NCBI GenBank assembly: GCA_043821705.1
Contig: JBDRCN010000001.1
Location: forward strand, 8,851-72,850
Reading direction: 5' to 3'
Source of the DNA: Candidatus Omnitrophota bacterium
Lineage (GTDB): Bacteria; Omnitrophota; Gorgyraeia; Gorgyraeales; Gorgyraeaceae
Length of the DNA: 64,000 bases
A program made the position numbers and the translations under genes. The notes under the pieces were generated by a model. The model was not told the DNA's origin. It did not search any database and was given only the letters and a program-made list of their open reading frames with translations. Numbering within the stretch: position 1 is the first letter of the stretch; the number at the start of each line of letters is the position of its first letter. This document shows, piece by piece, positions 11,398 through 62,100 of this stretch.

Positions 11398-11398
11398 A

Positions 11399-11479
11399 TT
11401 CAGTTATTAGATTTTAGTTATTAGTTGTTAGAAAAACATGCAATTCTAAAAACTAAAAACTGACAACTAAAAACTAGTT
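11399..11479 (+). repeat. Repeat family F copy F1 (imperfect palindrome built of agttgttag / ctaaaaact units)
   Basis: Second copy at 41360-41457, with shared core agttgttagaaaaa-N-ttctaaaaactaaaaactgacaactaaaaact. Confidence 0.7.
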
Positions 11480-11554
11480 TGGAGGCGACGATCGGAATCG
11501 AACCGATGAATAAGAGTTTTGCAGACTCCTGCCTTCCCCCTTGGCTACGCCGCC
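11480..11554 (-). tRNA. tRNA-Cys (anticodon GCA)
   Basis: Minus-strand sequence ggcggcgtagccaaggggg...ctGCAaa...ggttcgattccgatcgtcgcctcca. Confidence 0.75.
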
Positions 11555-12760: not shown

Positions 12761-12967
12761 CTATTTCTCTTCTAGTTTGATTATCTTATAACTTACTTTC
12801 CCTTGGGCTATCTCTTCTAGTGCGATCGTTGAGAATTTCTTGGAATTTGTCACTATCAGTTTCTGAGCACCATTGCTAAGCTCTACTGCCCTCTTTGCAG
12901 CTAAGAGTGTCAACTTAAAGACACTGGTCCCGTTCGGTAAAACTTGTTCCCTTGGAATATACGACAT
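12761..12967 (-). CDS. rpoZ: DNA-directed RNA polymerase subunit omega
   Basis: 68-aa ORF with the KFELVLLAAKRA-like motif, located next to gmk. Confidence 0.85.
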   Translation of the reverse strand: MSYIPREQVLPNGTSVFKLTLLAAKRAVELSNGAQKLIVTNSKKFSTIALEEIAQGKVSYKIIKLEEK

Positions 12968-16690: not shown

Positions 16691-16903
16691 TTAATGTAAC
16701 TTCTTTTTAACATTAACCTTAGCAAGTTTCGCCCCATGCATGCTAAAAAGGCCTTTATTTTCTTCCCTAAGCACCCTTATGTCAACTTGCGACTTCTCTG
16801 CCTTAAGCTCAGTCAATGCTATTCTTATAGCTTCCTGAGCTGTGCTTGCTTCTACTTCAAGCTCTAAGTCTTCTTTTATAATACTTACTTTATTCCTATT
16901 CAT
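16691..16903 (-). CDS. jag: Jag/KhpB N-terminal domain protein (truncated form)
   Basis: Located downstream of yidC. Likely start MNRNKVSIIKEDLELEV; only about 70 aa; the tandem 11-mer ccgtatcaaaa x2 follows. Confidence 0.55.
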   Translation of the reverse strand: MNRNKVSIIKEDLELEVEASTAQEAIRIALTELKAEKSQVDIRVLREENKGLFSMHGAKLAKVNVKKKLH

Positions 16904-19290: not shown

Positions 19291-19309
19291 GCCTTAATAG
19301 CCACACCAA

Positions 19310-19492
19310 CCTAACCCTAGCCTGTGACCTTTGGCGCTGGAACACCGCGCCGTGTTCTACGGTTTAGAGCTCGCTCTACGAATAGAGCTTTCGCCTTTAG
19401 TCAGGCTCGATCTCGCTCTAAAGCCTTGAACACTTCATGTTTAAATACTACGGGATGCCGCTATGTTCCTGATGCGCCAAAGGCTCTCAGCC
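19310..19492 (+). mobile_element. Repeat family C copy C1 (~185 nt, 28-bp TIR cctaaacccagcctgtgacctttggcgc)
   Basis: About 90% identical to 53469-53660. Internal hairpins include gaacac-cgcgcc-gtgttc and ctcgctcta direct repeats. Confidence 0.85.
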
Positions 19493-19525
19493 TAGGTTTG
19501 GTTAGCATATAGCTATTAGCGGATG

Positions 19526-19803
19526 GCTTGGCTCATCCCTAGAAGCATCTTGAAAATTTAGAGCGGCCTGCCCGCCGAAGCTTTAGCGTAGGAGGGGCAC
19601 GGTTGATAAAGCGAAGTTTCCTGCTCTTACGCATTAGTTATTTGAAGATTATTGCACTGTAAAAGCTATTATTAATTGTATATCAGTAACCATGGTTCGC
19701 AGGGAACCAGCATATCTATTAATTATAAGGCTGGTTTCATGAAGCGCAGGATTCCCACGCTGGGGGAATCCAAGCGGTGCTGATAGGGGTGAGACAAGAC
19801 AGG
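19526..19803 (+). mobile_element. Repeat family A copy A3 (with ~150-nt internal insertion)
   Basis: The 5' and 3' conserved blocks are identical to A1/A2, and the middle is expanded (19563-19735). Confidence 0.8.
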
Positions 19804-19825
19804 CCGCTAATAAATATATTTTCCT

Positions 19826-22450: not shown

Positions 22451-25184
<2,734 letters not shown>

Positions 25185-29332: not shown

Positions 29333-29410
29333 GTCCCCATCGTCTAGCCTGGCCTAGGACATCAGATTTTCGATCTGACGACCGGGGTTCAAATCCCCGT
29401 GGGGACGCCA
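29333..29410 (+). tRNA. tRNA-Glu (anticodon TTC)
   Basis: Sequence gtccccatcgtctagcctggcctaggacatcagatTTCgatctga...ggttcaaatccccgtggggacgcca. Confidence 0.8.
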
Positions 29411-36273: not shown

Positions 36274-36347
36274 TGCCTGGTAGTGTAATGGTAACACATC
36301 AGCTTTTGGAGCTGAGTTTCTAGGTTCGAATCCTAGCCGGGCAGCCA
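36274..36347 (+). tRNA. tRNA-Gln (anticodon TTG)
   Basis: Sequence tgcctggtagtgtaatggtaacacatcagctTTTGgagctga...ggttcgaatcctagccgggcagcca. Confidence 0.8.
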
Positions 36348-48700: not shown

Positions 48701-49480
48701 ATGAAGATCCATCCGACAGCAGTGATAGAAAAAGGGGCGAAGTTGGCCGACCAAATAAAAGTCGGCCCTTATGCTATTATAGGGCCCAATGTAGAAATAG
48801 GCAAAGGTACAGTAGTGGGCTCTCATGTAGTTTTAGAGGGCTATACTATTATAGGAGAGAATTGCCGGATCTTTACAGGCGCGTGCGTAGGCACTCCTCC
48901 ACAGGACCTTAAATATAAAGGTGTTAAGAGTTTTTTAAAGATAGGGAACAATAATACCATCAGAGAGTATGTCACTATTAATCCAGGGACAAGCGAAGGT
49001 AGTGATACTAAGATAGGAAATGATAATCTATTGATGGCATATTCTCATGTAGCGCATGACTGTAGTGTCGGAGATGGGTGTGTAATAGCTAATTCCGGGA
49101 CATTGGCTGGCCATGTAACACTTCAAGATAAGATTGTCATAGGAGGCCTTACAGCTATACATCAATTTGTAAAGATCGGAAGCCTAGCAATATTAGGAGG
49201 GTGTTCCAAGGTAGTCAAAGATATCCCTCCTTTTTCAACATGTGATGGCCACCCTGCAAGGGTCTATGGCCTCAATGTTATAGGGCTGGACAGGTCAGGC
49301 GTATCAAAAGAAACACAGAATGCACTTAAAAAAGCTTTTAAGATATTGTTCCATTCAAAACTTTCTTTTAAAAATGGGATAGAGAAAGTTAGGGCCGAGA
49401 TAAAAGGCAATAAAGAAGTCGATTACCTGATAGATTTCATTGAGAATTCAGAGAGAGGGATGTCTAGAGGTGACAAATAG
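48701..49480 (+). CDS. lpxA: Acyl-ACP--UDP-GlcNAc O-acyltransferase
   Basis: Likely start MKIHPTAVIEKGA after aggaaaa; the track ORF begins at 48680. Confidence 0.9.
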   Translation: MKIHPTAVIEKGAKLADQIKVGPYAIIGPNVEIGKGTVVGSHVVLEGYTIIGENCRIFTGACVGTPPQDLKYKGVKSFLKIGNNNTIREYVTINPGTSEGSDTKIGNDNLLMAYSHVAHDCSVGDGCVIANSGTLAGHVTLQDKIVIGGLTAIHQFVKIGSLAILGGCSKVVKDIPPFSTCDGHPARVYGLNVIGLDRSGVSKETQNALKKAFKILFHSKLSFKNGIEKVRAEIKGNKEVDYLIDFIENSERGMSRGDK

Positions 49481-50276
49481 AATAGGTCTTTTAGCAGGCA
49501 ATGGAAGATTCCCTATACTCTTTGCTAAAGAAGCAAAGAAAAAAGCTGTAGAAGTAATAGCTATAGCTATAAACGAAGAGACTTCAAAGGACCTTTCAAA
49601 ATATGTAGATAAGATATATTGGCTAGGAGTAGGAGAGCTAGAAAAACTTTTTATAATCCTCGCTCAAGAAAAACTCACCTCGATAATAATGGCAGGGCAG
49701 GTAAGGCATAAGCTTATCTTCGATAAAAGTATAAAACTTGACTCTAAGATGTCAGAGCTTTTAGGGAGCGTAAAGAATAAAAAGACAGATTCTCTTATAG
49801 GCGCAGTAGCTGGTATCTTGGAGTCCAAAGGCATTAAAGTACTTGATTCAACATCATTTTTAAGCGACTATCTTCCAAAAAAAGGACTATTGACAAGAGC
49901 TCCTTTAGACAAAGATATATTGTCTGATATTGATTTTGGACTGAATATTGCAAAAGAGATAGCAGGCCTGGATATTGGGCAGAGTATTGTCGTAAAAGAT
50001 AAAACAGTCCTGGCAGTAGAGAGTATTGAAGGCACTGATGAAGCTATAAAAAGGGGAGCTCATTACGGCAGAGAAGGTATTGTAGTTATCAAGGTAAGTA
50101 AACCTGGCCAGGATATGAGGTTCGATGTGCCAGTGATCGGGCCAGAGACCATAAATCTATTAAGTGAAGTGAAAGCAAAGGCGATCTCAATAGAAGCTAA
50201 TAGAACACTTATAATCGATAAGGATGAAACATTAAAGTTAGCGAATGATCTAGGCATAGGGATAATTGCTGTATGA
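49440..50276 (+). CDS. lpxI: UDP-2,3-diacylglucosamine hydrolase LpxI (DUF1009)
   Basis: 278-aa ORF with GLLAGNGRFP N-terminus; an alternative GTG start lies at about 49470. Confidence 0.75.
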   Translation: MRIQREGCLEVTNRIGLLAGNGRFPILFAKEAKKKAVEVIAIAINEETSKDLSKYVDKIYWLGVGELEKLFIILAQEKLTSIIMAGQVRHKLIFDKSIKLDSKMSELLGSVKNKKTDSLIGAVAGILESKGIKVLDSTSFLSDYLPKKGLLTRAPLDKDILSDIDFGLNIAKEIAGLDIGQSIVVKDKTVLAVESIEGTDEAIKRGAHYGREGIVVIKVSKPGQDMRFDVPVIGPETINLLSEVKAKAISIEANRTLIIDKDETLKLANDLGIGIIAV

Positions 50277-50983
50277 CAAAGAAAAAAAAGAAAGTTAGAG
50301 TGACAGACACTATAGAGGCTCTTTCAAAGATCTCTAGAGCTATATCAAGTGAATTATATCTAGAAGACATTCTAAAGCTCATAGTAACTGTTACAGCTGA
50401 AGTAATGAATTCAAGGATCTGCACTCTTATGCTTCTTGATGAGAAGAAAGAACATTTAGTGATAAGAGCCACCCAGAGTATAAGCGAAGAGTATATAAAG
50501 AAAAACCCTTTAAGAAGGAACGAAGGCATAGCATGGGAAGTTGTAAAGAAAAACAAACCTTTAGTAGTAGCAGATGTATTGAAGGAAAAGGAATATAAAT
50601 ATAAAGATATTGCTAAAAAAGAAGGACTCGTGTCCCTTCTATGTGTACCAATGGCAGTTAAAAATAGAGCGATAGGAGTGCTTAACTGTTATACTTCAAA
50701 GCCTCATAAATTTTCAAAGACAGAGATAAATGTTCTTATAAGCGTAGCTAATCAAGCAGCCATATCTATCGAGAATACAGAACTCTTAGTAAAGACAAAA
50801 GTAATACAGGAAGAACTTGAGACGAGAAAAGTCGTTGAGAAAGCAAAAGGTATCTTGATGAAAGAAGAAAATCTTTCAGAAGAAGAGGCTTTTCGAAAAA
50901 TACAGAAATTCAGCATGGATAGGCGTAAGCCCATGAAAGAAGTTGCTGAGGCAATAGTAATAATGCATGACATGAAGCAATGA
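50273..50983 (+). CDS. GAF-ANTAR RNA-binding antitermination regulator
   Basis: The N-terminal GAF domain is followed by a C-terminal ANTAR signature (ETRKVVEKAKGILMKEENLSEEEAFRKIQKFSMDRRKPMKEVAEAIV). Confidence 0.8.
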   Translation: MTKKKKKVRVTDTIEALSKISRAISSELYLEDILKLIVTVTAEVMNSRICTLMLLDEKKEHLVIRATQSISEEYIKKNPLRRNEGIAWEVVKKNKPLVVADVLKEKEYKYKDIAKKEGLVSLLCVPMAVKNRAIGVLNCYTSKPHKFSKTEINVLISVANQAAISIENTELLVKTKVIQEELETRKVVEKAKGILMKEENLSEEEAFRKIQKFSMDRRKPMKEVAEAIVIMHDMKQ

Positions 50984-51381
50984 AAAAGAAAACATACAAA
51001 AACCTACAAAATAATATACGCACTTTAAAGACGCCTAATATAGATGTCTGGAAGAATCAATACTCTGATAAGGATTATGTTATTGAACTCGAGAACCGTG
51101 AATTTACTTGTGTATGCCCTAAGACAGGTCTTCCTGATTTTGCAACTATAACTTTAAGATATAGTCCAGATAAAACTTGTATTGAATTGAAGTCTTTAAA
51201 GATGTATATGCTTAGTTTTAGGAATATGGGCATATTCCATGAACACGTGATAAACAGGATATTGGATGATCTTGTCAAGGCCTGTAAGCCACGCTATGTA
51301 TATATTAAAGGAGAGTTTGGTGTAAGAGGTGGGATAAAAACAGTAGTTGAAAGTGAATATAAGGGGAGTGGAGCATGTTAG
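50980..51381 (+). CDS. queF: NADPH-dependent 7-cyano-7-deazaguanine reductase
   Basis: 133-aa ORF with the Cys motif FTCVCPKTGLPDF. Confidence 0.85.
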   Translation: MKKKTYKNLQNNIRTLKTPNIDVWKNQYSDKDYVIELENREFTCVCPKTGLPDFATITLRYSPDKTCIELKSLKMYMLSFRNMGIFHEHVINRILDDLVKACKPRYVYIKGEFGVRGGIKTVVESEYKGSGAC

Positions 51382-52709
51382 TAAAAACTAAAAAAGATGT
51401 CATAAAATTAGTAAAAAAACATAATGTTAGATTTATAAAACTCTGGTTCACAGATGTTCTGGGGTTTCAAAAAGGTGTTTCTATTACAAGGAGTGAACTT
51501 GAGAGGGCTCTTTATGATGGTATGGGATTTGATGGTTCATCCATAGAAGGGTTCGCCCGTATTGAAGAAAGCGATATGGTAGCAATGCCTGATGTATCGA
51601 CTTTTCAGATGATACCTTGGAGGTCTAAAAAAGAAGGGCTTTCTGCAAGGATGTTCTGTGATGTGCTCCAGCCAAATGGAAAACCTTTTGAAGGAGACCC
51701 AAGATTTGTATTAAAGAAGAATTTGAAGTTAGCAAATGACATGGGATATACGAATTATTATGTAGGGCCTGAACTGGAGTATTTTTATTTCAACAACCCC
51801 AAGAATACTATCATATTGGACAGGGGAGGATATTTTGACCTTACGCCTTTAGATGTGGCGCAAGATCTGAGAAGAGATACAGTCTTGATGCTGGAAAAGA
51901 TGGGGATAGACGTAGAATATTCTCATCATGAAGTAGCTACATCACAGCACGAGATAGATCTTAGATATAATGATGTGCTCAAGATGGCAGACAATGTAAT
52001 GACCTATCGCATGGTCGTAAAAGAAGTAGCGAGGAAGAATGGGGCCTACGCGACATTTATGCCTAAGCCGATACACGGGATAAATGGAAGTGGTATGCAT
52101 GTACACCAATCTTTATTTAAAGGCAAGAAAAATGCTTTTTTTAGCAAGACTGACAAGAGGCATCTTTCTAACGAAGCCAAATATTTTATAGCAGGCATAT
52201 TAAAGCATGCACCTGAGATGGCAGCAGTAACGAATCAGTGGGTCAATTCTTATAAGAGACTTATCCCTGGTTATGAAGCGCCAGTATACATATGCTGGGC
52301 ACAGATGAATAGAAGTGCTCTTGTGAGAGTACCTATGTATAAGCCTGGGAAAGAACATGCTACTAGGATAGAATTCCGCTCGCCTGACCCAGCTTGCAAT
52401 CCTTACCTTGCGTTTTCAGTCATGCTTAGGGCTGGATTAGAAGGAATAAAGAATAAATATAAATTACAGGAACCTTCAGAAGATAATATTTATCATATGA
52501 CAGAGGAGGCAAGAGAAAAGGCCAACATAAAGTCTCTGCCTGAAGATCTATACGAAGCTATCAAGATCGCAGAAAAAAGCCAGCTTTTAAAGGACGCATT
52601 AGGAGATAAGGTCTTCAAATACTTCATAAGAAATAAATATATGGAATGGGACGAGTATAAGGCTCAAGTATCCCAATATGAAATAGACAAATATCTCCCT
52701 ATACTTTAA
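51375..52709 (+). CDS. glnA: Glutamine synthetase (copy 1)
   Basis: 444-aa ORF with GS beta-grasp and catalytic domains. Confidence 0.9.
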   Translation: MLVKTKKDVIKLVKKHNVRFIKLWFTDVLGFQKGVSITRSELERALYDGMGFDGSSIEGFARIEESDMVAMPDVSTFQMIPWRSKKEGLSARMFCDVLQPNGKPFEGDPRFVLKKNLKLANDMGYTNYYVGPELEYFYFNNPKNTIILDRGGYFDLTPLDVAQDLRRDTVLMLEKMGIDVEYSHHEVATSQHEIDLRYNDVLKMADNVMTYRMVVKEVARKNGAYATFMPKPIHGINGSGMHVHQSLFKGKKNAFFSKTDKRHLSNEAKYFIAGILKHAPEMAAVTNQWVNSYKRLIPGYEAPVYICWAQMNRSALVRVPMYKPGKEHATRIEFRSPDPACNPYLAFSVMLRAGLEGIKNKYKLQEPSEDNIYHMTEEAREKANIKSLPEDLYEAIKIAEKSQLLKDALGDKVFKYFIRNKYMEWDEYKAQVSQYEIDKYLPIL

Positions 52710-52721
52710 TACCAATAAAAA

Positions 52722-53459
52722 ATGAAAAAACTTATCACATTTTCACTAATAATATTATCTTGCCTGATCTTGTATTCTACGATAGATTTTAGCAAGAATG
52801 GCCATGCATTAGAAGGGATATTAAATAGCAGCTCAGGGGAATTACCTTTCTCAAAAGGCGAGAGATTAATGTATGATGTTAAGTTGAACGGTGTAACGAT
52901 AGGCAGCTCGATACTTACATTTTACGGAGAAAAAGAGATAAATGGAAAGGCTGCGCATCACATTAATTTTTATACCCTTATCCCATCTCTTAAGGATTCA
53001 GAAGATATTTACGGAGATACTGAAAGTTTTTTACCAATGGAGGTTCATAGAAACCTTAAGAAGAAGCTGGGATTTAATGAGACAATAATAGAGGTATATG
53101 ATCAGGAGAATTTTAGGATAGATATCACCTCAAAGAGCAAGCTTCGCAGCAGAAAACTTTCTATTGAAAGAGATGCTCCGGTCCACAATCCCATACTCTT
53201 AAGTTATTTCTGTAGAGCTAAAGCGAGCTTTACTAAAGAAGATAGCTTCGACATTACTTTATCAAGGACAAAGTTTCAAGTTTATTATGATGGGAAGAAA
53301 GAGATAAAAACACCTTTAGGAAAACAGCTTGCCCATGTATTTACAAGTGACCCCAAGAAGTTTACGCTCTACCTAAGTGATGATGATAGGAAGACCCCAC
53401 TCATGATAGATAGCCCTGGCACCCTCGGCTACTCCCTTGTAATCCGCTCCATCGAATAA
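52722..53459 (+). CDS. Hypothetical secreted protein
   Basis: 245-aa ORF with an N-terminal signal/TM segment. Confidence 0.5.
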   Translation: MKKLITFSLIILSCLILYSTIDFSKNGHALEGILNSSSGELPFSKGERLMYDVKLNGVTIGSSILTFYGEKEINGKAAHHINFYTLIPSLKDSEDIYGDTESFLPMEVHRNLKKKLGFNETIIEVYDQENFRIDITSKSKLRSRKLSIERDAPVHNPILLSYFCRAKASFTKEDSFDITLSRTKFQVYYDGKKEIKTPLGKQLAHVFTSDPKKFTLYLSDDDRKTPLMIDSPGTLGYSLVIRSIE

Positions 53460-53468
53460 CTACCTTAA

Positions 53469-53660
53469 CCTAAACCCAGCCTGTGACCTTTGGCGCTGGA
53501 ACACCGCGCCGTGTTCTACGGTTTAGAGCTCGCTCTACGAATAGAGCTTTCGCCTTTAGTTAGGCTCGATCTCGCTCTAAAGCCTTGAACACTTCATGCT
53601 TAAATATTACTGGATGCCGCTATGTTCCTTATGCGCCAAAGGTCACAGGCTGGGTTTAGG
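53469..53660 (+). mobile_element. Repeat family C copy C2 (perfect 28-bp TIRs)
   Basis: cctaaacccagcctgtgacctttggcgc ... gcgccaaaggtcacaggctgggtttagg. Confidence 0.85.
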
Positions 53661-53728
53661 TTGCTATGGCTTTAAGCTATAATTACATTGACTCAATGGC
53701 TGGGGTGTGGTATATTTATAATATAAGG

Positions 53729-53799
53729 GCACAAAGTATGTGCTATAAGAGATAATGAAGTCCTTTTTGGTAGTAAGAGACTACTGAAAAGGACTTTTT
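53729..53799 (+). promoter_or_regulatory. Leader L1: palindrome GCACAAAGTATGTGC plus intrinsic terminator (gtccttttt...aaaaggac-TTTTT) upstream of sigma-like gene
   Basis: The palindrome is at 53729-53743 and the terminator at 53760-53799. The block gatAATGAAgtccttttt is paralogous to the glnA2 leader. Confidence 0.6.
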
Positions 53800-53811
53800 G
53801 CTTTAGAGAAG

Positions 53812-54330
53812 GTGATCTTAATGGATCTTAGGATATTACTTGAGAGAATAACCCCTACGCTTAGGCTTATTGCTAGAAGACACCTCTTGAGAGGGTTTTA
53901 TAGTGAAGATGACCTCTATCAGGAGATGTGCTTATATCTATTAGAGCATTATAAATATGGTCTTCCTATAGGCAAGAATGAGAGTTATGTTATTAAGGGG
54001 TGTGAGTTTCATCTGCAGAATTTTTTGAGAAAAGGTCGCTCTAAGGTATCATTCTCTAGCCTTGATCAGGTCATATCTCCTAGAGGTCTTACATTGGGTG
54101 AGATCCTTGAAGATAAAAGAGAGGATCTTTCTTCAAGCCTATCTAATAGACTGACAGTCGATGAATTAAATTCTATAGGGCTAACTGAGATGGAAAAAAA
54201 AGTCATAACATCTCTCTTAAAAGGAAATACTGTCCGTGAAGTAGGAAAAGAGCTTGGCATTTCTCATGTAATGGTGTTAAAGTATAAGAAGAATATTAAG
54301 AAAAAATGGCAAAAGAAGTTTAATCAGTAA
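53812..54330 (+). CDS. ECF-type sigma-70 family factor (regions 2 and 4)
   Basis: 172-aa ORF. Region 2-like DLYQEMCLYLLEHY; C-terminal HTH VREVGKELGISHVMVLKYKKN. GTG start at 53812 or ATG at 53821. Confidence 0.6.
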   Translation: MILMDLRILLERITPTLRLIARRHLLRGFYSEDDLYQEMCLYLLEHYKYGLPIGKNESYVIKGCEFHLQNFLRKGRSKVSFSSLDQVISPRGLTLGEILEDKREDLSSSLSNRLTVDELNSIGLTEMEKKVITSLLKGNTVREVGKELGISHVMVLKYKKNIKKKWQKKFNQ

Positions 54331-54346
54331 ACAGAAAGGAACTAAT

Positions 54347-55099
54347 ATGAAACACGTTAAAAATCTAGCATTAATAACTATGCTGTTTTCAATTATCATC
54401 TTAGCTGGAACTGTTTTTGCTGGGGAGGTGCTTTTAGAAGAAACTGATATAAGCATATCCTCTGATATAGGTTTTTTCTCAAAGTATATGTGGAGAGGCA
54501 TGAAGCTAGATGATGATCCTGTAATGCAACCAGGAGTTTATATCTCGGGTTATGGATTTGAGGTAAGTGTTTGGGGCAATATTGACATGGATTCAGATGA
54601 TTCTTTGACAAGCGAAGAAGTGGATTATGCAATAAGTTATAGTTACTCTATTCCTGAAACACCAGTTTCATTATCAGGAGGCTTTACATATTATGATTTC
54701 CCAAAAGCGGATTCAGCTAGCAGGGAGTGGTTTGTGGGAGTAAGTCTAGATACTATACTTTCTCCTTCTTTGACACTGTATCATGATTTCGGAGAAGAAG
54801 ATTCAGGAGGGGGAAGCGGTGATTATTTATACTTAGGGCTTAGTCATTCTGAACCTATAGGTGATTCCCCAGTCAGTTTAGACCTATCTGGGGGGATCGG
54901 ATATAACGAAGAGCTATTTATTAATGGAGAAGGCGGCCATGTTAATCTGGGAGCAGGTTTTACTATACAATTGACAGATATTTGTTCAGTTTCTCCAACT
55001 GTAAACTACGATATACCATTTGGAGATATGGAAGATGAAGATGATGGTAATTATGACGATGAGTTTTATGGCGGAGCAACTGTGGCTTTTAGTCTATAA
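54347..55099 (+). CDS. Secreted outer-membrane beta-barrel-like protein adjacent to amt (acidic Gly/Asp-rich loops)
   Basis: 250-aa ORF with signal peptide, YMWRG motif and alternating beta-strand pattern. Confidence 0.55.
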   Translation: MKHVKNLALITMLFSIIILAGTVFAGEVLLEETDISISSDIGFFSKYMWRGMKLDDDPVMQPGVYISGYGFEVSVWGNIDMDSDDSLTSEEVDYAISYSYSIPETPVSLSGGFTYYDFPKADSASREWFVGVSLDTILSPSLTLYHDFGEEDSGGGSGDYLYLGLSHSEPIGDSPVSLDLSGGIGYNEELFINGEGGHVNLGAGFTIQLTDICSVSPTVNYDIPFGDMEDEDDGNYDDEFYGGATVAFSL

Positions 55100-55177
55100 A
55101 GGCACAAAAGCAATAGATTAGAACTTATTAAGGGGTTACCAAAATAAGCCAATTTTTACTTGTATAAGTGACGGAAG

Positions 55178-55233
55178 ACACATAGTTGTGTTTATACAAA
55201 GGCGTTCTTTATTGGAAAGAACGCCTTTTTTAT
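55178..55233 (+). promoter_or_regulatory. Leader L2: hairpin acac-ATAGTT-gtgt plus intrinsic terminator ggcgttcttt-attgg-aaagaacgcc-TTTTTT upstream of amt
   Basis: The upstream block ggttaccaaaaTaagcc..tttttacttgtataagt (55136-55170) is shared with the glnA2 leader. Confidence 0.65.
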
Positions 55234-55247
55234 TTAAGGAGGATATT

Positions 55248-56504
55248 GTGGAAAATTTAGCTAGTTTTACGAGAGGTCTTGATACCATGTGGGTCCTGAT
55301 AGCAGCATTTCTAGTGTTCTTTATGCAAGCAGGATTTGGCATGGTAGAAGCAGGATTTATAAGAGCAAAGAACACTTGCAATATATTGACAAAGAATTTC
55401 TTGGATTTTTGCATGGCATCTTTAGGGTTTTTCGTTTTTGGTTATGCAATAATGTTCGGAGAAGGAAATCCTTTTATAGGAATGAAGGGATGGTTTCTGA
55501 GCGGGGCGGTATCTGGTGCAGGCGTACCTTTATATGCATTTTGGCTGTTTCAGGCAGCATTCTGCGGAGCTGCTGCGACTATAGTCGCAGGAGGCATGGC
55601 TGAACGTATGAAATTTCAAGCTTACTTAATATATTCCTTTCTGATTTCCGCTTTTATTTACCCGATCGTCGGCCATTGGATATGGGGAGGAGGATGGTTA
55701 GCTGGATTAGGTTTTAGTGATTTTGCAGGTTCTACAGTTGTACATTTAGTAGGCGGAGTTGCTGCTCTTATCGGGACTATTATGCTTGGCCCTAGAATGG
55801 GAAAATATAGTCCTGATGGGTCAGCGAATGCTATTGCGGGGCACAGTATACCATTAGCATCTTTAGGAGTGTTTATACTCTGGTTCGGATGGTTTGGTTT
55901 TAACCCAGGGTCTACATTGAGCGTAGGAAATGGAGATCTGATAGCAAGGGTAGCTATAAATACTAACCTGGCAGCTGCGCTCGGAGGGATAGCAGCTATG
56001 TTAACTGTATGGAAGATGTTTGGAAAACCTGATCTATCTATGGCAATGAATGGCGCGCTTGCAGGACTTGTAGCGATAACAGCACCATGCGCTTTTGTAG
56101 ACCCATGGGCAGCTATTATTATAGGTATAGTAGCTGGAATTATCGTTGTTTTAGGAGTAACTCTATTAGATAGATTACATATAGACGATCCAGTAGGGGC
56201 TTTTCCAGTACACGGTATCAATGGTATTTGGGGAACTCTTGCCATAGGATTGTTTGGTCAAAAAGCGCTTGGCCTTGCAAATAATGGCCTCTTTTATGGA
56301 GGGGGATTTCTGCAACTCGGTATCCAGGTTTTAGGTGTATTATCAGTAGCAGGATTTATTATTGTTTCAATGGGCCTAATCTTTAAGGCAATAAATTCCA
56401 CTATTGGTTTAAGGGTGTCAAAAGAAGAAGAGCTAAAAGGCCTAGATATAGGAGAGCATGGGATGGAGTCGTATTCTGGGTTCCAGGTTTTTACTACTCA
56501 GTAA
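55248..56504 (+). CDS. amt: Ammonium transporter
   Basis: Amt/MEP 11-TM protein. A GTG at 55248 follows aaggagg; the track ORF begins at 55188, but the terminator hairpin lies inside that extension. Confidence 0.85.
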   Translation: MENLASFTRGLDTMWVLIAAFLVFFMQAGFGMVEAGFIRAKNTCNILTKNFLDFCMASLGFFVFGYAIMFGEGNPFIGMKGWFLSGAVSGAGVPLYAFWLFQAAFCGAAATIVAGGMAERMKFQAYLIYSFLISAFIYPIVGHWIWGGGWLAGLGFSDFAGSTVVHLVGGVAALIGTIMLGPRMGKYSPDGSANAIAGHSIPLASLGVFILWFGWFGFNPGSTLSVGNGDLIARVAINTNLAAALGGIAAMLTVWKMFGKPDLSMAMNGALAGLVAITAPCAFVDPWAAIIIGIVAGIIVVLGVTLLDRLHIDDPVGAFPVHGINGIWGTLAIGLFGQKALGLANNGLFYGGGFLQLGIQVLGVLSVAGFIIVSMGLIFKAINSTIGLRVSKEEELKGLDIGEHGMESYSGFQVFTTQ

Positions 56505-56513
56505 AAGGAGGAC

Positions 56514-56858
56514 ATGATGAAACTAATAATCGCAATGATACAACCGCATAAATTACCAGATGTAAAAAAAGCCTTATTTGATGCCGAGGTCTACAAGATG
56601 ACAGTTACAAATGCCTTAGGCTGTGGCCAGCAAAAAGGCTTTACAGAGACTTATAGAGGCGTAATACATGATGTGAATCTCCTGAAGAAAGTAAGGCTTG
56701 AGATAGCTGTCAATGAAGACTTTGTTCAACCTACTATAGATGCGATAATCAGCGGCGCTAGAACAGGTGAAATAGGAGATGGTAAGATATTTATACTTGA
56801 CCTGCCAGAATGCATCAGGATACGTACTGGAGAAAGAGGCAATGAGGCAATAGGTTAG
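56514..56858 (+). CDS. glnB: Nitrogen regulatory protein P-II
   Basis: [20 protein letters not shown]...; the T-loop region is present. Confidence 0.9.
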
Positions 56859-56867
56859 GACTTGCTG

Positions 56868-57044
56868 GCTGTCTTGGCCTGGCTCTATCAGCACCGCTCG
56901 GATTTCCCCAGCGAGGAAATCCTTCGCTTCATGATAATTTTCGCTCCCCGCCATTTTGTAACGTCTATTTGATAGTAGTTAAAATGGCGGGACCATGCCC
57001 GCTCAAATTCTCAAGATGCTGCTAGAGCCAGACCAAGCCAGCCT
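56868..57044 (-). mobile_element. Repeat family A copy A4 (minus orientation, long GC hairpin variant)
   Basis: The reverse complement reads ...ctagcagcatcttgagaatttgagcgggca...gagcgaaaattatcatgaagcgaaggatttcctcgctggggaaatccgagcggtgctgatag... Confidence 0.85.
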
Positions 57045-57193
57045 TTACTCAAACCTATAGGCTTATTGCGATTTCCAGGTCTCTTAGGCTGTCAGCATGA
57101 ATGAGATTTTCAAATTCATGAACATAGTCTTGATTTAGCTTGCTTGAACAGCATTTTGCAGATTACTTTTAACCTGATTAGAAGTAGCAGATT

Positions 57194-57272
57194 AGCAGTG
57201 GGTGGCCGAGATTGGGGTCCCTACAAGCGCGCAGGCAAATGCCGAGCACTTGCGGGGTGAATCTCGGACAGG
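57194..57272 (+). repeat. Repeat family B copy B2
   Basis: Matches the reverse complement of 224-311. Confidence 0.8.
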
Positions 57273-57310
57273 ACCCACTGCTAAGATAGTTAAAGGTGCG
57301 GAGAATACGA

Positions 57311-57336
57311 GTGGTGCTGATAGGGGTAAGACAGGG
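57311..57336 (+). repeat. Family A 3'-end fragment (gtggtgctgataggggtaagacagggc)
   Basis: Matches the A3 3' terminus. Confidence 0.5.
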
Positions 57337-57360
57337 CAGTTCGCTAGGGATAAAAAAGAG

Positions 57361-57490
57361 GTTACCAAAAAGCCTTGTTTTTTACTTGTATAAGTAGTAA
57401 TCTACCAGTGTGGGTAGATAAACACAAAGTTTGTGAATAGGATAATGGCGTCCTTTTTAGCGGCTGGTTCTAGCTAAGAAGGACTTTTTT
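57361..57490 (+). promoter_or_regulatory. Leader L3 upstream of glnA2: P1 hairpin ctacc-AGTGTG-ggtag, palindrome ACACAAAGTTTGTG, P2 hairpin aggat-AATGGC-gtcct overlapping the terminator gtcctttttagc-11nt-gctaagaaggac-TTTTTT
   Basis: Both small hairpins have hexaloops with A1/G4, and the P2 3' arm forms the 5' arm of the terminator. This is the architecture described for ANTAR target RNAs. Confidence 0.6.
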
Positions 57491-57515
57491 ATTTTAACCA
57501 AAAAAAGGAGGAAAA

Positions 57516-58844
57516 ATGGTTATGACAAAGAAAGATGTATTGAAGCTGGTAAAGGAAAATGACGTAAAATTTATCAGGCTTTGGTTCACAGATCTCTTAG
57601 GCCAGGTTAAAAGCTTTGCAATATTAGACAGTGAATTGGAAGGCGCTTTAGAAAATGGTATGGGATTTGATGGTTCATCTATTACAGGCTACCAGGATAT
57701 TGAAGAAAGCGATATGATCGCTCTTCCTGACCCTAGCACATTTTGTTTGCTTCCATGGAGGCCAGGAGAAAAAGCTGTAGCAAGGATGATATGCGATGTT
57801 CTAACGCCAGACAAACAGCCTTATGAAGGTGACCCAAGGTATGTTTTGAAAAAGGCCCTAAAAAGAGCATCTGATATGGGATTTGATCATTTTTATCTAG
57901 GGCCAGAATTAGAGTTTTTCTATTTCAGGAATGACTCAGGCACGGAGATCCTTGATAAAGGAGGGTATTTTGACCTTACGACCTTGGATGTGGCAAGTGA
58001 TCTAAGAAGAGAGACAGTCTTGGCTTTAGAGAAGATGGGTATCAAGATAGAGTATTCTCATCATGAAGTCGCACCGTCTCAACATGAAGTTGACATGAGA
58101 TACGATGATGCATTAAAAATGGCAGATAATGTCATTACCTATAGAATAGCAGTAAAAGAGATCGCTAGTAAATTCGGGGTGTACGCTACTTTTATGCCTA
58201 AACCTATTTTTGGACAGAATGGTTCAGGTATGCACACTCACCAGTCACTATTTAAAGGTGAGAAAAACGCATTTTTTGATAAAAGCACAAAGGATAACCT
58301 GTCTGATACAGCGCGTTCCTACATAGCAGGTCTATTAAAACATTCAAAAGAGATCTGTTCGATATTTGCTCAAACTACAAATTCTTATAAGAGGCTAGTG
58401 CCTGGTTACGAAGCGCCTGTATATGTCGCATGGTCTCGCAGAAACAGGTCAGCTCTTGTCAGAGTTCCTTTATATCATCCTGGTATGGAAAAAGCTACAA
58501 GGTGTGAATTCAGGGCATGTGATCCAGCATGTAACCCATATCTCACATTTGCAGCAATGCTTCACGCAGGATTAGAGGGAATAGAGAAAGGCTATAAATG
58601 CCCTGATGCAATGGAAGGCAATCTATATCATCTAAGCGACAATGAAAGAAAAGCGCGAGGTATAGAGACCTTACCTGATAACTTAGGCCAGGCTATTAAT
58701 ATTACAGAAGGAAGTGAACTAGTTAAAAAGACCCTTGGGACACATATTTTCCCGAGATTCATAGAGCTGAAGAAAAAGGAATGGGATAGTTACAGGATAC
58801 AGGTACCTCAGTACGAATTAGATAAGTATTTATCTATTCTTTAA
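57516..58844 (+). CDS. glnA: Glutamine synthetase (copy 2)
   Basis: 442-aa ORF, about 70% identical to copy 1. Confidence 0.9.
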   Translation: MVMTKKDVLKLVKENDVKFIRLWFTDLLGQVKSFAILDSELEGALENGMGFDGSSITGYQDIEESDMIALPDPSTFCLLPWRPGEKAVARMICDVLTPDKQPYEGDPRYVLKKALKRASDMGFDHFYLGPELEFFYFRNDSGTEILDKGGYFDLTTLDVASDLRRETVLALEKMGIKIEYSHHEVAPSQHEVDMRYDDALKMADNVITYRIAVKEIASKFGVYATFMPKPIFGQNGSGMHTHQSLFKGEKNAFFDKSTKDNLSDTARSYIAGLLKHSKEICSIFAQTTNSYKRLVPGYEAPVYVAWSRRNRSALVRVPLYHPGMEKATRCEFRACDPACNPYLTFAAMLHAGLEGIEKGYKCPDAMEGNLYHLSDNERKARGIETLPDNLGQAINITEGSELVKKTLGTHIFPRFIELKKKEWDSYRIQVPQYELDKYLSIL

Positions 58845-58867
58845 GTGGTAGATTTGCCTGGCGGGAA

Positions 58868-58905
58868 AAGATCCAGTTTCCCGCCAGGTGTCAAATTTTT
58901 TGTAT
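58868..58905 (+). terminator. Intrinsic terminator after glnA2 (cctggcgggaaa-agatccag-tttcccgccagg, then T-run)
   Basis: Perfect 12-bp stem. Confidence 0.7.
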
Positions 58906-58931
58906 AGCTATGCACATGATTTAAGCAGGAT

Positions 58932-59168
58932 TTGAATAAGAGGGAAGACTATATGATAGATAAGATCGATGATGATTTTTTAATGGTCAACAGAGGCCAT
59001 ATATACGAGACTGCTATGGGGAGCCTAGAAAAGCTCATCATTGAAAAAGCCCTTGAAAAATCATTTGGCAATAAGATAATAGCTGCAAAGATCCTTGGTA
59101 TCCATAGGAACACACTATATACTAAGGTAAAGAAATTATGTATTAATTCGGAGCGTTATAAGATATGA
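58932..59168 (+). CDS. Fis-family / NtrC-C-terminal-type HTH protein (stand-alone)
   Basis: The C-terminus AAKILGIHRNTLYTKVKKL is an HTH_8 motif. The stop overlaps the gltB ATG. Confidence 0.6.
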   Translation: MNKREDYMIDKIDDDFLMVNRGHIYETAMGSLEKLIIEKALEKSFGNKIIAAKILGIHRNTLYTKVKKLCINSERYKI

Positions 59169-62100
59169 AAAGGACACATTTTCCAGAAAAACAGGGGCTA
59201 TATGATCCGCAGTTCGAGAAGGATGCTTGCGGCGTAGGGTTTGTCTGCAGTATTAAAGGGGAAAAGTCCAACTCTATTGTAAAACAAGGCATAGAGGTCC
59301 TGAATCGTCTTTCTCATCGAGGCGCAGTAGGATCTGATCCAAAGACAGGGGACGGCGCTGGGATCCTTATACAAACTCCGCATGAATTTTTTGTTAAGAT
59401 AGCTAAAAGAGCTAATATCGATCTGCCAGGACCAGGCTCTTATGGTACTGGACTTATATTTTTACCTCAAGACCCTCAAGACAGAAAGTCATGTAAAGGC
59501 ATATTTGAAGATACAATAAAAGAACATGGCCAAGTCCTTTTAGGCTGGAGGGATGTGCCAGTAGATGAAACTAACATTGGGAAGACTGCAAAAGACAGCA
59601 AACCCATATTCCAGCAGATATTTATAGGTAGAAGCAAGGATGTGAACGATGTCTTGGCTTTTGAAAGAAAGCTTTATGTCATAAGAAAACATGTCGAAAG
59701 CAGTATCAGCTTGTCTGGTTTAAAGGAGAAAAGATCATTTTATATAACTAATATATCTTGCTGTACATTTTCTTATAAGGGGCTTCTGATGCCAAGCCAG
59801 CTTGAGGAATTTTTTCTTGACCTTAAAGATGATTCGCTCAAAAGTGCCTTGTGTCTAGTACATTCGCGTTATAGTACTAATACATTTCCTACTTGGGACC
59901 TCTCACAGCCGTTTAGATTTTTAGCCCACAATGGAGAGATCAATACCATCAGAGGTAATGTAAATTGGGTAAGCGCTAGGGAAAGGCTTTTAGCAAGCGG
60001 ACTATTCGATCTAGACATAGAAAAGCTTAAACCTATTATTGTTGAAGGTGGAAGTGATTCAGCGCAAATAGATAATTTTTTTGAACTTTTAGTCCTGTCA
60101 GGTAGATCTCTTGGCCATGCTATGATGATGCTTATACCAGAGGCATGGGAAGGCAATAGTTCTATCAAGAAAGAGCTTAAGGAGTTTTATAGATATCATG
60201 CATGTTTTATGGAGCCGTGGGATGGGCCTGCTGCAATAGCATTTACTGACGGCCGATCTATAGGGGCAGTTCTGGACAGGAATGGGCTTCGTCCTGCGCG
60301 CTATATTGTGACTAACAATGATTTTGTTGTAATGGCATCTGAAGTAGGGGGTGCTGGATATACCAGCGAAAGATATAAAGCTTTCAGGAAGACTTGAACC
60401 AGGGAAGATCTTCTTTATTGATACTGAGGCTGGCAAGATCATACATGATTCCGAGATCAAAGAAGGACTTTCAGCGCGCTCCCCATATGAAGAATGGAAT
60501 AAAAATAACATAGTATATCTTGATAAGATGGTCAGTAGCCGGAGAGGAGGTCAAAAATTAGATGACCTCATCTCTAATCTTAAAGCATTTGGCTATTCTC
60601 GCGAAGACCTGAAGATCATCCTAAAACCTATGGCTGAGGAAGGGAAAGAACCTGTTGGTTCTATGGGCAATGATACTCCTCACGCATTTTTATCTAACAA
60701 ATCACAGCTTATATATAATTATTTCAGACAACTCTTTGCCCAAGTCACTAATCCAGCTATAGACCCTATAAGGGAAAAACTTGTGATGAGCCTTGATAGT
60801 TTTATAGGGCCTGAACAGAATATCCTGGAAGAAACGCCGCTACATAGCCATAAGATCATGGTAAAAAACCCGATCCTCACAAACGATGAACTTGAGAAGC
60901 TGCAGGATATAAGTATGAATGGTTTTAAGGCAAAGACCATATATACATTTTTTGATAAAAATACAGGAAAAGAAGGTTTTGTAAAAGCGCTTGAAAGGAT
61001 ATGTTTTGAAGCAGAATATGCTATTGAGAAAGGATATTCCTTTATTATATTGAGCGACAGAGGAGCTGATAAAGATAATATCGCGCTTCCCTCGCTTTTA
61101 GCTACAAGCGCTGTGCATCAACATCTTGTCAGGAAAACTATACGTTCCCAGGTAGCTTTGATAGTTGAAAGCGCAGAACCAAGAGAGGTCCATCATTTTG
61201 CACTTCTCTTTGCTTATGGAGCAGGTTGTATCAATCCATATCTGGCATATGAAGCGATCGACTATCTTATCTCACAAAATGAGATCCATGTAGACATCAA
61301 AAGCGCTATAAAGAATTACAATAAGGCAATAAGGGACGGGATACTAAAGATACTCTCGAAGATGGGTATATGCACTCTCAGGAGTTATAAAGGCGCTCAG
61401 ATATTTGAAGCGCTAGGTTTAGATGACTCTGTGATAGAAAAATATTTTACTGGCACTGTCTCTAGGATAGGCGGGGTTGATATCGAGGGCATAGCAGAAG
61501 AGACTATAGATAGGCACAAAGAAGCATATCCTGCCAGGGATGTCGGGAATGACCACCTGACAAGCGGAGGGGTCTATCAATATAAAAAAGACGGAGAATT
61601 CCATCTATGGAATCCTGATACAATATCGAGCCTGCAGGATGCCACAAGAAATAATGACTATGAAAAATATAAAAAGTTCGCAGGTTTTATAAATGACCAG
61701 TCAGGAAATCCTACGACACTAAGAAGCCTTTTTAAGTTTAAAAAAACACGATCTATCCCTATAGATAAGGTAGAGCCTATTGAAGACATCATGAAACGTT
61801 TTGCAACAGGTGCGATGAGCTTTGGTTCTATCTCAAGCTCAGCTCACGAGACTATTGCTATTGCGATGAATAGGATCGGAGGAAAATCTAATACAGGAGA
61901 AGGCGGTGAAGACCCGAACAGGTTTATAACATTACCAACTGGAGATTCAAGAAGGAGTGCTATAAAACAGGTCGCATCAGGCAGGTTCGGGGTCACTATA
62001 AATTATCTTACAAACGCAGATGAGATACAGATAAAGATCGCTCAAGGTGCTAAGCCAGGAGAAGGAGGACAGCTTCCAGGGCATAAGGTAAGCGAGGTGA

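Follow-up and report, generated by a model that had tools for sequence, protein, structure and literature searches.

Putative ANTAR-type attenuators in the leaders of nitrogen-assimilation genes of an Omnitrophota bacterium, with a neighbouring GAF-ANTAR protein as candidate regulator

We analysed 64,000 nucleotides (nt) of the genome of a Candidatus Omnitrophota bacterium (GenBank assembly GCA_043821705.1, contig JBDRCN010000001.1, positions 8,851 to 72,850 of the forward strand), hereafter the window, in which three 5' leaders precede the gene of a divergent sigma-factor-like protein (leader 1), the ammonium transporter and P-II genes amt-glnB (leader 2), and the glutamine synthetase gene glnA2 (leader 3). 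The three leaders are probably attenuators of the ANTAR type, that is, tandem hairpins overlapping an intrinsic terminator, and are probably served by the GAF-ANTAR protein encoded nearby at 50273-50983. A first-pass annotation made from the sequence of the window had proposed terminator leaders read by an ANTAR domain, with this protein as the candidate, and the proposal gains support from the match of the leaders to the published target consensus, their ranking by a covariance model built from published targets, the covariation of their stems in related genomes, the overlap of the second hairpin with the terminator, the synteny of the GAF-ANTAR gene, and the RNA-contacting residues kept in its product.

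Results

The two-hairpin motif and the terminator in the three leaders

ANTAR targets are defined in the literature as two tandem hexaloop hairpins (P1 and P2) with A at the first and G at the fourth loop position (A1 and G4), stems of at least 3 base pairs (bp), and a linker of 2-25 nt, the second hairpin overlapping an intrinsic terminator (PMC3369931, PMC8934654, PMC8164766); one point variation is allowed in the hexaloop, a covariance score of 14-15 bits serves as the threshold, and the linker criterion comes from PMC8164766. The published consensus is SYAC-AAHGRH-GUDB … RRGY-AAHGDV-GCYY (Ramesh 2012 Fig S1/S2, PMC3369931), and in the same study the P1 stems are usually GCAC/GUGC, ACAC/GUGU or GUAC/GUAC, as in the typical P1 hairpins GCAC-AAAGAC-GUGU, ACAC-AAUGGC-GUGU and GUAC-AAAGGC-GUAC.

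The pattern CACAWAGT(N)TGTG matches three times in the window (53730-53742, 55179-55190 and 57423-57435), where 0.01 matches are expected by chance, and all three matches are on the plus strand and in the leaders, which agrees with the earlier description of a CACA…TGTG hairpin common to them. That description had treated this hairpin as distinct from a dual hexaloop, and this part of it has to be revised: the CAC…GUG hairpin of the window is the same as the published P1 hairpins and, judged by its sequence, is the canonical P1 of the dual motif. The block GATAATGRMGTCC, previously reported from two of the leaders, has two exact matches in the window, at 53751 and 57441, and with two mismatches allowed the number of matches does not exceed chance; its counterpart in the amt leader is AC-AAAGGC-GU at 55196-55205, with a stem of just 2 bp. 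On the same grounds this GATAATG block is P2 together with the start of the terminator, the 3' arm of P2 serving as the terminator's 5' arm.

Folding of each leader yielded a small hairpin and a long hairpin followed by a U-run, with z-scores relative to shuffled sequences of -6.3 for leader 1, -5.7 for leader 2 and a moderate -2.9 for leader 3. A terminator pattern scan found 53757-53797 and 55198-55228 and missed the terminator of the glnA2 leader, which is visible by folding, because its loop is 11 nt long; folding and scan agree with the strong stem-loop and U-run that had been noted shortly before each ribosome-binding site (RBS). All six loops of the three leaders (AAAGUAU, AAUGAA, AUAGUU, AAAGGC, AAAGUUU and AAUGGC) have A1 and G4. 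The P2 loops are 6 nt long throughout, and the P1 loop has 6 nt in the amt leader and 7 nt in the sigma-like and glnA2 leaders. The linkers between P1 and P2, of 7 nt (53744-53750), 4 nt (55192-55195) and 4 nt (57436-57439), lie within the published range, and the P1 and P2 stems measure 4 and 3 bp in leader 1 and 3 and 4 bp in leader 3. The 3' arms of P2 (53760-53762, 55204-55205 and 57450-53) fall inside the terminator stems in every case; the overlap of the second glnA2 hexaloop hairpin with the 5' arm of the terminator, also noted at first pass, is seen in the GUCC of P2, with which the terminator begins.

The individual elements recur in relatives. Orthologues of the leader 1 P2 read GGAC-AAUGAA-GUCC (locus L081) and GGGC-AAAGAA-GCCC (L082), and in the alignment of glnA leaders (A2) the counterpart of the leader 3 P1, GCAC-AANGUUU-GUGC, is nearly invariant. 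The amt leader is the least secure of the three assignments because its P2 falls short of 3 bp, and in the alignment to model R1 (described below) this P2 carries marked mismatches; it may nevertheless be a deliberately weak and strongly protein-dependent antiterminator, since its counterpart AUAC-RAAGGY-GUUC is kept in both L081 and L083.

A further hairpin, P0, with the loop AGUGUG, stands between the promoter block and P1 of the glnA2 leader. The first-pass annotation had paired it with the AAUGGC hairpin as the two hexaloops of the motif; AAUGGC holds its place as P2, and AGUGUG does not, being a variable extra element. As the conserved P1 it was rejected: in L081, the closest relative, the loop reads AGUAUA (CUACC-AGUAUA-GGUAG) and G4 is lost, and in other relatives the hairpin is absent or its loop differs, whereas the CACA hairpin is kept everywhere. 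It could still serve as an additional site for binding, with a linker to P2 of 20 nt. Many glnA leaders carry a hairpin at this position with covarying stems and unrelated loops, and P0 may be a 5' stem-loop with a stabilising role.

Covariance models of published and Omnitrophota leaders

No ANTAR-named Rfam family matched the window at the gathering score or the region 53400-57600 at E<=10, and no other Rfam family, known nitrogen riboswitches such as the glnA RNA included, matched the leaders at either level. Matches at E<=10 to PyrR (25.7 bits against a cut-off of 54), Ref1C and microRNA families were set aside as terminator look-alikes far under their cut-offs. Because Rfam provided no ANTAR match, a covariance model (R2) was constructed with 27 published ANTAR targets from Firmicutes and Proteobacteria as its sole input, and the window was searched with it on both strands with filters off. 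Among all positions on both strands, R2 ranked the three leaders second, fourth and fifth (13.3, 12.5 and 9.9 bits), and it is very unlikely that three sites specified beforehand would fall in the top five of 128,000 positions by chance. The check by covariance model proposed at first pass came out divided, with no hit from Rfam and high ranks from R2 at scores under the 14-15 bits of the literature. Two other window sites score alike: 12862-12903 (minus strand, 13.6 bits), which lies inside an open reading frame (ORF) and was taken as background, and 23925-23963 (12.9 bits), which was taken as background on its score alone.

In 0.48 Mb of related Omnitrophota loci, R2 returned 79 matches at E<=1, with 78 on the gene strand and 62 scoring 15 bits or more (best 24 bits). 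The control, 1.23 Mb of Amt loci from other phyla, returned four, two of which lie just upstream of clostridial amt genes, and the enrichment of the Omnitrophota loci over the control is about 50-fold per base.

A second model (R1) was built from 23 glnA leaders, the glnA2 leader of the window among them. In the window it recovered this seed member at E 4.8e-8 and the other two leaders at E 0.03 and 0.66; its match at 16741-16780 (minus strand) was dismissed as a chance terminator-like match because P1 is absent there. In the relatives R1 returned 95 matches, of which 93 are on the gene strand.

Conservation and covariation in related Omnitrophota

The relatives comprised three NCBI contigs (L081-L083) and 80 metagenome loci (L084-L163) with the same gene cluster, in which the order is sigma-like gene, an optional porin gene, amt, P-II gene, glnA, HTH_8 gene and gltB. 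Homologues of the sigma-like protein at 60-70% identity number in the hundreds and are nearly confined to Omnitrophota, and sequence comparison shows the cluster together with its leaders to be conserved phylum-wide. Upstream of the sigma-like and glnA genes the relatives follow a common plan of promoter, P1, short linker, P2, and long hairpin with U-run. P1 conforms to (G/A)C(A/G)C - A-N-N-G-U-W-(W) - G(U/C)G(C/U), and P2 has a loop of the form [A/G]-A-N-G-R-Y, within which hairpin the long hairpin begins. Of 88 units folded from the P2 loop onward, 86, those of the window included, had the 3' arm of P2 paired with downstream sequence in a hairpin that leads into a U-run.

Both stems vary while their pairing is kept, P1 as GCAC/GUGC, GCGC/GCGC, ACAC/GUGU or GUAC/GUAC and P2 as GAAC/GUUC, GGAC/GUCC, UAAAAC/GUUUUA, GGC/GCC or GGGC/GCCC. 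In the R1-aligned units, G4 is present in 64/65 P1 loops and 86/87 P2 loops, and A1 in 55/65 and 73/87, respectively; the remaining P2 loops all have G1, as do nine of the ten remaining P1 loops. P2 loops are 6 nt long in 71 of 87 cases and P1 loops 7 nt in 59 of 65. In the alignment derived from R2, 93.7% of the cells are paired, compared with 77.8% ± 1.3 after shuffling (0 of 500 shuffles reached the observed value), seven of the eight pairs change on both sides, and the cells with double changes number 79, where 27 are expected; with the partner shifted by 1-3 columns, pairing fell to 46% or less.

These data bear on whether the CACA-N-TGTG palindrome might instead be a DNA operator, as the first-pass annotation had considered, bound by a dimeric repressor or activator such as the HTH_8 protein encoded next to glnA2, with the terminators unregulated. 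The near-perfect inverted repeat lies just 3' of the -10 region in leaders 1 and 2, and the HTH_8 gene is conserved in the cluster, both of which speak for an operator. The motif is nonetheless strand-specific in the matches of both models, its asymmetric A-N-N-G loop is kept while the letters of the stem change, and it equals the published P1 consensus; its distance from the promoter block also varies, from 9 nt after TATAAG in leader 2 to 28 nt in leader 3. Pairing is moreover kept through G-U wobbles (GCAC/GUGU, GUAC/GUGC and GCGC/GUGC), which a DNA palindrome does not tolerate, and the stem types are as an RNA helix predicts. We consider an operator highly improbable and retain the ANTAR hairpin.

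The genes 3' of the 114 merged matches encode the sigma-like protein (64), GlnA (27), Amt (6), the porin (6), GAF-ANTAR proteins (5) and others (6, a putative glutamate dehydrogenase among them). In loci with about 7 kb of unrelated genes 5' of the sigma-like gene, the sole R2 match in that region (L123:5375-5415) precedes a gene beginning at 5471 whose product was read by eye from its N-terminus as glutamate dehydrogenase; this putative glutamate dehydrogenase gene may be part of the regulon. Four other matches (in L082, L091, L099 and L103) precede genes with signal-peptide-like starts, which suggests that their products are secreted or outer-membrane proteins.

The sigma-gene leaders of relatives carry two or three tandem attenuators, each of hexaloop and terminator (L081:7741-8000, L083:7741-8000, L141:6741-7000 and many others), the later ones often without a P1 of their own. 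Leader 1 of the window has a single attenuator, and in sequence it looks like a shortened form in which the P1 of the first attenuator is joined to the P2 and terminator of the second. Genomes were also scanned with the Amt protein. The nearest species representative in that scan (L001, a high-GC member of the Omnitrophota with an 81% identical Amt) lacks a leader before amt, and the exact leader motifs are absent from the 80 loci of the scan, which served only as the negative control.

The GAF-ANTAR protein as candidate regulator

No ANTAR-like ORF other than 50273-50983 occurs in the window. The ANTAR domain that it encodes gives an ungapped alignment with EutV (6wsh/6ww6, E 4.8e-12) and likewise with Rv1626 and NasR. 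The EutV residues R142, K143, K147, K149, E160, M172 and R175 are kept as R185, K186, K190, K192, E203, M215 and R218, and in EutV R142, K149 and E160 hydrogen-bond G4 and M172 is an essential "plug" (PMC8934654). EutV R168, N173 and R177 are replaced by Q, D and P, the first two of these changes being found in Rv1626 as well. For the GAF domain the best NCBIfam and PDB matches are PtsP (2.6e-17), NifA (1.3e-15) and PDB 3ci6/3trc. In PtsP (EI-Ntr) and NifA this domain is known to respond to 2-oxoglutarate and/or glutamine. Because of this resemblance and of the content of the regulon, we propose, speculatively and by analogy, that the GAF-ANTAR protein might sense nitrogen status through 2-oxoglutarate and/or glutamine.

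The protein is strongly conserved, with 75-86% identity among its 120 best-scoring homologues, the named ones of which are all from Omnitrophota, and more than 7,400 homologues at E<=1e-10. In at least 12 loci its gene has the sigma-like gene or glnA1 as a neighbour: it is directly beside the sigma-like gene in L114, L139-L141, L145, L150, L152, L154, L155 and L158, and L081 and L110 both retain the group GAF-ANTAR - queF - glnA1. A second GAF-ANTAR paralogue stands 3' of the sigma-like gene in five loci, and because it has a GGTTACC block (see below) and a P1/P2 leader of its own (Table 1), auto-regulation or cross-regulation of the antiterminator is suggested in some lineages.

Weighing the attribution

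Several observations count against the assignment of the leaders to the ANTAR type and of the GAF-ANTAR protein to the leaders. The R2 scores of the leaders are individually weak and lie under the published threshold, and two unrelated window sites score about as well; R2 aligned the terminator itself as P2 in the amt leader, where the P2 stem has 2 Watson-Crick pairs in place of the 3 or more of the literature; two of the three P1 loops have 7 nt rather than 6; and the loop and covariation alignments were fitted to the models, so that their numbers lean towards structure. As regards the protein, several relatives with 7-8 kb of flank on each side of the cluster (for example L082, L083, L095 and L098) have no GAF-ANTAR gene near it, for which reason the pairing of protein and RNA rests on a frequent, not a universal, synteny, and the window is 64 kb of a 145-kb contig, so that another ANTAR protein could lie outside it.

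The first group of observations would suit attenuators of some other kind, such as a riboswitch for a metabolite (e.g. glutamine), a target of another RNA-binding protein, or a site of uncontrolled partial termination, with a coincidental likeness to ANTAR targets, the more so as short hairpin motifs hold little information. The leaders lack any Rfam match, however, including to nitrogen riboswitches, and they offer too little structure to form a ligand pocket; covarying stems around a nearly constant G4 are the hallmark of recognition by ANTAR domains; and both the enrichment over the control loci and the strand bias of the R2 matches speak against coincidence. We regard a non-ANTAR attenuator as quite unlikely.

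The second group raises the prospect that the leaders are of the ANTAR type and are bound by another ANTAR protein encoded beyond the window, a response-regulator ANTAR or a second GAF-ANTAR, with the protein at 50273 having a different target. The two GAF-ANTAR paralogues that flank the sigma-like gene in some relatives (L141) are in keeping with this, as are the loci without a nearby GAF-ANTAR gene. Against it stand the uniqueness of the 50273-50983 ORF in the window, its very strong conservation, and the synteny lpxI - GAF-ANTAR - queF - glnA1 … sigma cluster kept in L081 and L110. Another ANTAR protein seems unlikely to us, and the one-component GAF-ANTAR protein at 50273-50983 is, on present sequence comparisons, most likely the regulator.

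Promoters and the sigma-like protein

In the sigma-like protein, TIGR02937 (sigma70-ECF, for extracytoplasmic function) aligns over residues 3-166 of 169 with E 7.7e-10 and 38.6 bits, under the 42.9-bit cut-off, and Pfam finds GerE alone. The top PDB matches of its AlphaFold2 model (mean predicted local distance difference test, pLDDT, 73) in Foldseek are sigma factors, all of them weak (E>=3.5e-3, TM about 0.3). The reading frame had been started at 53812; homologues place the start at the ATG at 53821.

The sigma-like gene is itself preceded by a sigma-70-type promoter at 53688-53716, the best promoter-like site in 53400-59000 (10/12 matches, TG present), and relatives carry TTGACA-N17-TATACT at the same place. 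Upstream of amt and glnA2 there is a different block. The first-pass annotation had remarked on an upstream block common to these two leaders, and the 36-nt blocks beginning with GGTTACC (55134 and 57360) do align ungapped with 28/36 identities; within them, TTTTACTTGTATAAGT has its two exact matches in the window, at 55154 and 57380. The phylum-wide consensus is GGTTACCAAA-N…-TTTTTACTTatata with fixed spacing, given also as aaaaaaaaGGTTACCAAAa-N8-tTtTTTACTTatata; 73 instances of the block occur in L081-L163, the offset from the first G to TACTT is 23 nt in 64 of 68 instances, and the core pattern matches related loci on the gene strand only and downstream of the sigma-like gene only. A sigma-54 promoter reading of GGTTACC…GC was rejected, the GG-to-GC spacing differing between the two blocks (10 vs 12 nt), as was a sigma-70 reading with TATAAG as -10, a -35-like hexamer being missing 16-18 nt upstream. 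The 16-nt gap between GGTTACC and TACTT would fit the -35/-10 geometry of an alternative sigma factor, and because of this fit we suggest that the ECF-like sigma factor might drive the block.

Gene content and repeats of the region

ORFs were read from a listing over 49800-59500 and their domain content was determined with Pfam (Table 1). Pfam agrees with the earlier identification of a GAF-ANTAR gene close to glnA1, with queF and then glnA1 downstream. At its 5' end the GAF-ANTAR gene overlaps an upstream lpxI-like ORF, start codon on stop codon (ATGA at 50273-50276; the lpxI identity comes from L081), and queF and glnA1 follow without a leader (window 49440-51381), in the same order as in L081. 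This overlap and the missing leader make it appear that the regulator and glnA1 share a transcript with lipid A genes and stand outside the ANTAR switch. The HTH_8 protein (58932-59168) consists of a Fis/NtrC-type helix-turn-helix (HTH_8) domain alone, and almost every related locus has its gene in the interval from glnA2 to gltB; the protein may bind DNA as a partner in this nitrogen circuit.

Table 1. Leader elements, genes and structural RNAs of the window, and leaders of the second GAF-ANTAR gene in related loci. Positions are those of the window unless a locus is named.
Feature	Position	Strand	Description
Sigma-70-type promoter of sigma-like gene	53688-53716	+	TTGACT, 17-nt spacer, TATATT, extended -10 TG
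Leader 1 P1 hairpin	53729-53743	+	GCAC-AAAGUAU-GUGC; 7-nt loop, A1 and G4; aligned as P1 by R1 and R2
Leader 1 P2 hairpin	53751-53762	+	GAU-AAUGAA-GUC; hexaloop, A1 and G4; 3' arm within terminator; R2 alignment
Leader 1 putative intrinsic terminator	53757-53799	+	18-bp stem and U-run; ends ~9 nt before RBS of sigma-like gene
amt leader promoter-like block	55134-55168	+	GGTTACCAA…TTTTTACTTGTATAAG
Leader 2 P1 hairpin	55178-55191	+	ACAC-AUAGUU-GUGU; hexaloop, A1 and G4; R2 alignment
Leader 2 weak P2	55196-55205	+	AC-AAAGGC-GU; hexaloop, A1 and G4; 2 Watson-Crick pairs; inside 5' arm of terminator
Leader 2 putative intrinsic terminator	55198-55231	+	13-bp stem and U-run; ends 4 nt before amt RBS AAGGAGG
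glnA2 leader promoter-like block	57360-57395	+	GGTTACCAA…TTTTTACTTGTATAAGT
Extra hairpin P0, glnA2 leader	57400-57419	+	AUCUACC-AGUGUG-GGUAGAU; between promoter block and P1
Leader 3 P1 hairpin	57423-57435	+	CAC-AAAGUUU-GUG; 7-nt loop, A1 and G4
Leader 3 P2 hairpin	57440-57453	+	GGAU-AAUGGC-GUCC; hexaloop, A1 and G4; 3' arm GUCC begins terminator
Leader 3 putative intrinsic terminator	57450-57490	+	stem 57450-57484, 12 bp; 11-nt loop; U6
GAF-ANTAR gene, candidate antiterminator	50273-50983	+	236 aa; Pfam ANTAR (PF03861) 1.3e-22, GAF_2 6.9e-21
queF	between GAF-ANTAR gene and glnA1	+	Pfam QueF
glnA1	51375-52709	+	Pfam GlnA
DUF3108 gene	between glnA1 and sigma-like gene		Pfam
Sigma-like gene	53821-54330	+	169 aa; divergent ECF-type sigma-70 family; first gene under leader 1; Pfam GerE
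Gcw_chp/TorF porin-like gene	54347-55099		directly 3' of sigma-like gene
amt	55248-56504	+	GTG start 55248; Pfam; operon under leader 2
glnB/P-II	56514-56858	+	Pfam; operon with amt under leader 2
glnA2 (glutamine synthetase)	57516-58844	+	Pfam; gene under leader 3
Small HTH_8 protein gene	58932-59168		78 aa; between glnA2 and gltB
gltB	3' of HTH_8 gene		Pfam GltB
6S RNA	1894-2079	-	Rfam gathering score, 94 bits
tRNA genes (five)	11125-11554 (-), 29333-29407, 36274-36344		Rfam
Leaders of second GAF-ANTAR gene	L139:967-1012, L141:7561-7606, L150:1687-1732, L154:1380-1425, L158:6351-6396		P1/P2 leader

The long intergenic regions 5' of leaders 1 and 3 are filled by dispersed repeats resembling miniature inverted-repeat transposable elements (MITEs), which are unrelated to the switch. 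A 196-bp element at 53467-53662 has perfect 30-nt terminal inverted repeats, a 94% identical copy at 19308-19503, a predicted fold energy of -105 kcal/mol and no Rfam match, and by its sequence looks like a MITE. The spacer of about 500 nt between glnB and the glnA2 block (56867-57339) holds GC-richer inverted-repeat elements that recur at 223-549 (minus strand), 2184-2339 (minus strand) and 19737-19809 and appear to be dispersed repeats, not parts of the leader; one copy adjoins the gene for 6S RNA. The 6S RNA and the five tRNA genes are the only Rfam matches in the whole window at the gathering score.

Discussion

Proposed mechanism

We infer termination, read-through, the identity of the binding protein, its ligand and the direction of the response. 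The nascent leader would first fold P1, with the stem (G/A)CAC/GUG(C/U) and a loop beginning A-N-N-G. By default the strong intrinsic terminator would then form and transcription would stop 4-20 nt before the RBS. An active GAF-ANTAR dimer would bind P1 and then capture or stabilise P2 as it emerges (hexaloop AAWGRM); since the 3' arm and loop of P2 are the first bases of the 5' arm of the terminator, the first 3-8 nt of that arm would be withheld and the terminator could not form while P2 is held, so that RNA polymerase would read through into the sigma-like and porin genes, amt-glnB or glnA2. The activating signal is probably nitrogen limitation, upon which the regulon would be switched on.

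A further, decidedly tentative proposal places two tiers in this regulon. In the first, the GAF-ANTAR protein, sensing 2-oxoglutarate and/or glutamine directly, would license synthesis of the divergent ECF-like sigma factor, whose gene has one attenuator in its leader in the window and up to three in relatives. In the second, the sigma factor would drive a phylum-specific promoter, GGTTACC-N16-TACTTatata, before amt, the porin gene, glnA, gdhA and the second GAF-ANTAR gene, and these transcripts would need the same antiterminator again, making a coherent feed-forward AND gate.

Relation to known ANTAR systems

The closest mechanistic parallel is the EutV/EutW system of the eut leaders of Enterococcus faecalis and Listeria (PMC3369931, PMC8934654), which likewise have two small tandem hairpins with A1 and G4 loops, P1 stems of the type …AC/GU… (GCAC/GUGC, ACAC/GUGU), a P2 overlapping the 5' arm of the terminator, and several attenuators per regulon, and whose G4-contacting residues are kept in the window protein. 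EutV differs in being a phosphorylated response regulator (REC-ANTAR) where the window encodes a GAF-ANTAR protein, and the eut targets are genes for ethanolamine use; eut loops are strictly 6 nt long, whereas Omnitrophota P1 loops often have 7 nt, and eut P2 stems are mostly RRGC/GCYY, whereas those of Omnitrophota are GAAC/GUUC, GGAU/GUCC or AAAAC/GUUUU.

NasR of Klebsiella oxytoca, a NIT-ANTAR protein acting on nasF in nitrate assimilation, is similar in being a one-component sensor-ANTAR protein at the leader of a nitrogen-assimilation operon, and the nasF P2, GGAU-AAAGGC-GUCC, is one loop base apart from the glnA2 P2 of the window, GGAU-AAUGGC-GUCC. Its sensor is a NIT domain for nitrate and nitrite, its target a single operon and, unlike in the window, sigma-54/NtrC acts upstream in the Klebsiella nasF system (PMC12591593). 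The GAF domain links the window protein to NifA and PtsP (EI-Ntr), which it matches best, although the outputs of these are an AAA+/HTH activator and a phosphotransferase rather than an RNA-binding ANTAR domain, and ligand binding by the window protein is proposed by analogy. Further nitrogen-related ANTAR examples are glnA-nitR of Clostridium saccharobutylicum and GnfK/GnfR of Geobacter, the latter a two-component system.

ANTAR motifs with terminators were predicted in 2012 upstream of ammonium transporter, P-II, glutamine synthetase and glutamate synthase genes across Firmicutes and Proteobacteria (including Deltaproteobacteria), with ANTAR genes next to glnA (Ramesh 2012, PMC3369931). Table S2 of that study mentions ammonium transporters 25 times, P-II 18 times, glutamine synthetase 26 times and a sigma-factor gene 0 times, among its examples being the amt-P-II leaders of Desulfotomaculum acetoxidans and the glnA of Alkaliphilus metalliredigens with an adjacent ANTAR gene. 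Because of these predictions, the mechanism of the switch and its link to nitrogen genes are already known, and the leaders described here are a new example, not a new kind of switch. They share with the 2012 regulons the motif and terminator before amt, P-II and glnA genes and the ANTAR gene by glnA, and differ from them in phylum, in having a sigma-factor gene as a target, and in the GGTTACC-type promoter that is associated with them here and not there. What is new is the phylum Omnitrophota, a GAF-ANTAR protein as the candidate regulator, the 7-nt P1 loops and, as the target with the heaviest attenuation, a sigma-factor gene. No GAF-ANTAR protein had been characterised as of 2012 (Ramesh et al., PMC3369931), and a literature search, in which "ANTAR" mostly matched "Antarctic", returned no later characterisation of one and no earlier account of the system described here.

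Implications for Omnitrophota

For annotation, the motif explains terminators between promoters and nitrogen genes that gene callers could otherwise misread as the ends of operons. The compact and highly conserved GAF-ANTAR protein with its defined, predicted RNA targets makes a tractable system for asking what GAF-ANTAR proteins sense, and the two-tier circuit proposed above would, if true, be the first function assigned to one. If the sigma tier is real, the GGTTACC block and the genes behind it would be the first promoter motif and regulon for an alternative sigma factor of the Omnitrophota, and the two-tier circuit could stand in for an NtrBC/sigma-54-type circuit in the phylum. The leaders would extend ANTAR-mediated control of nitrogen assimilation to the uncultivated Omnitrophota, a phylum in which almost nothing is known about gene regulation.

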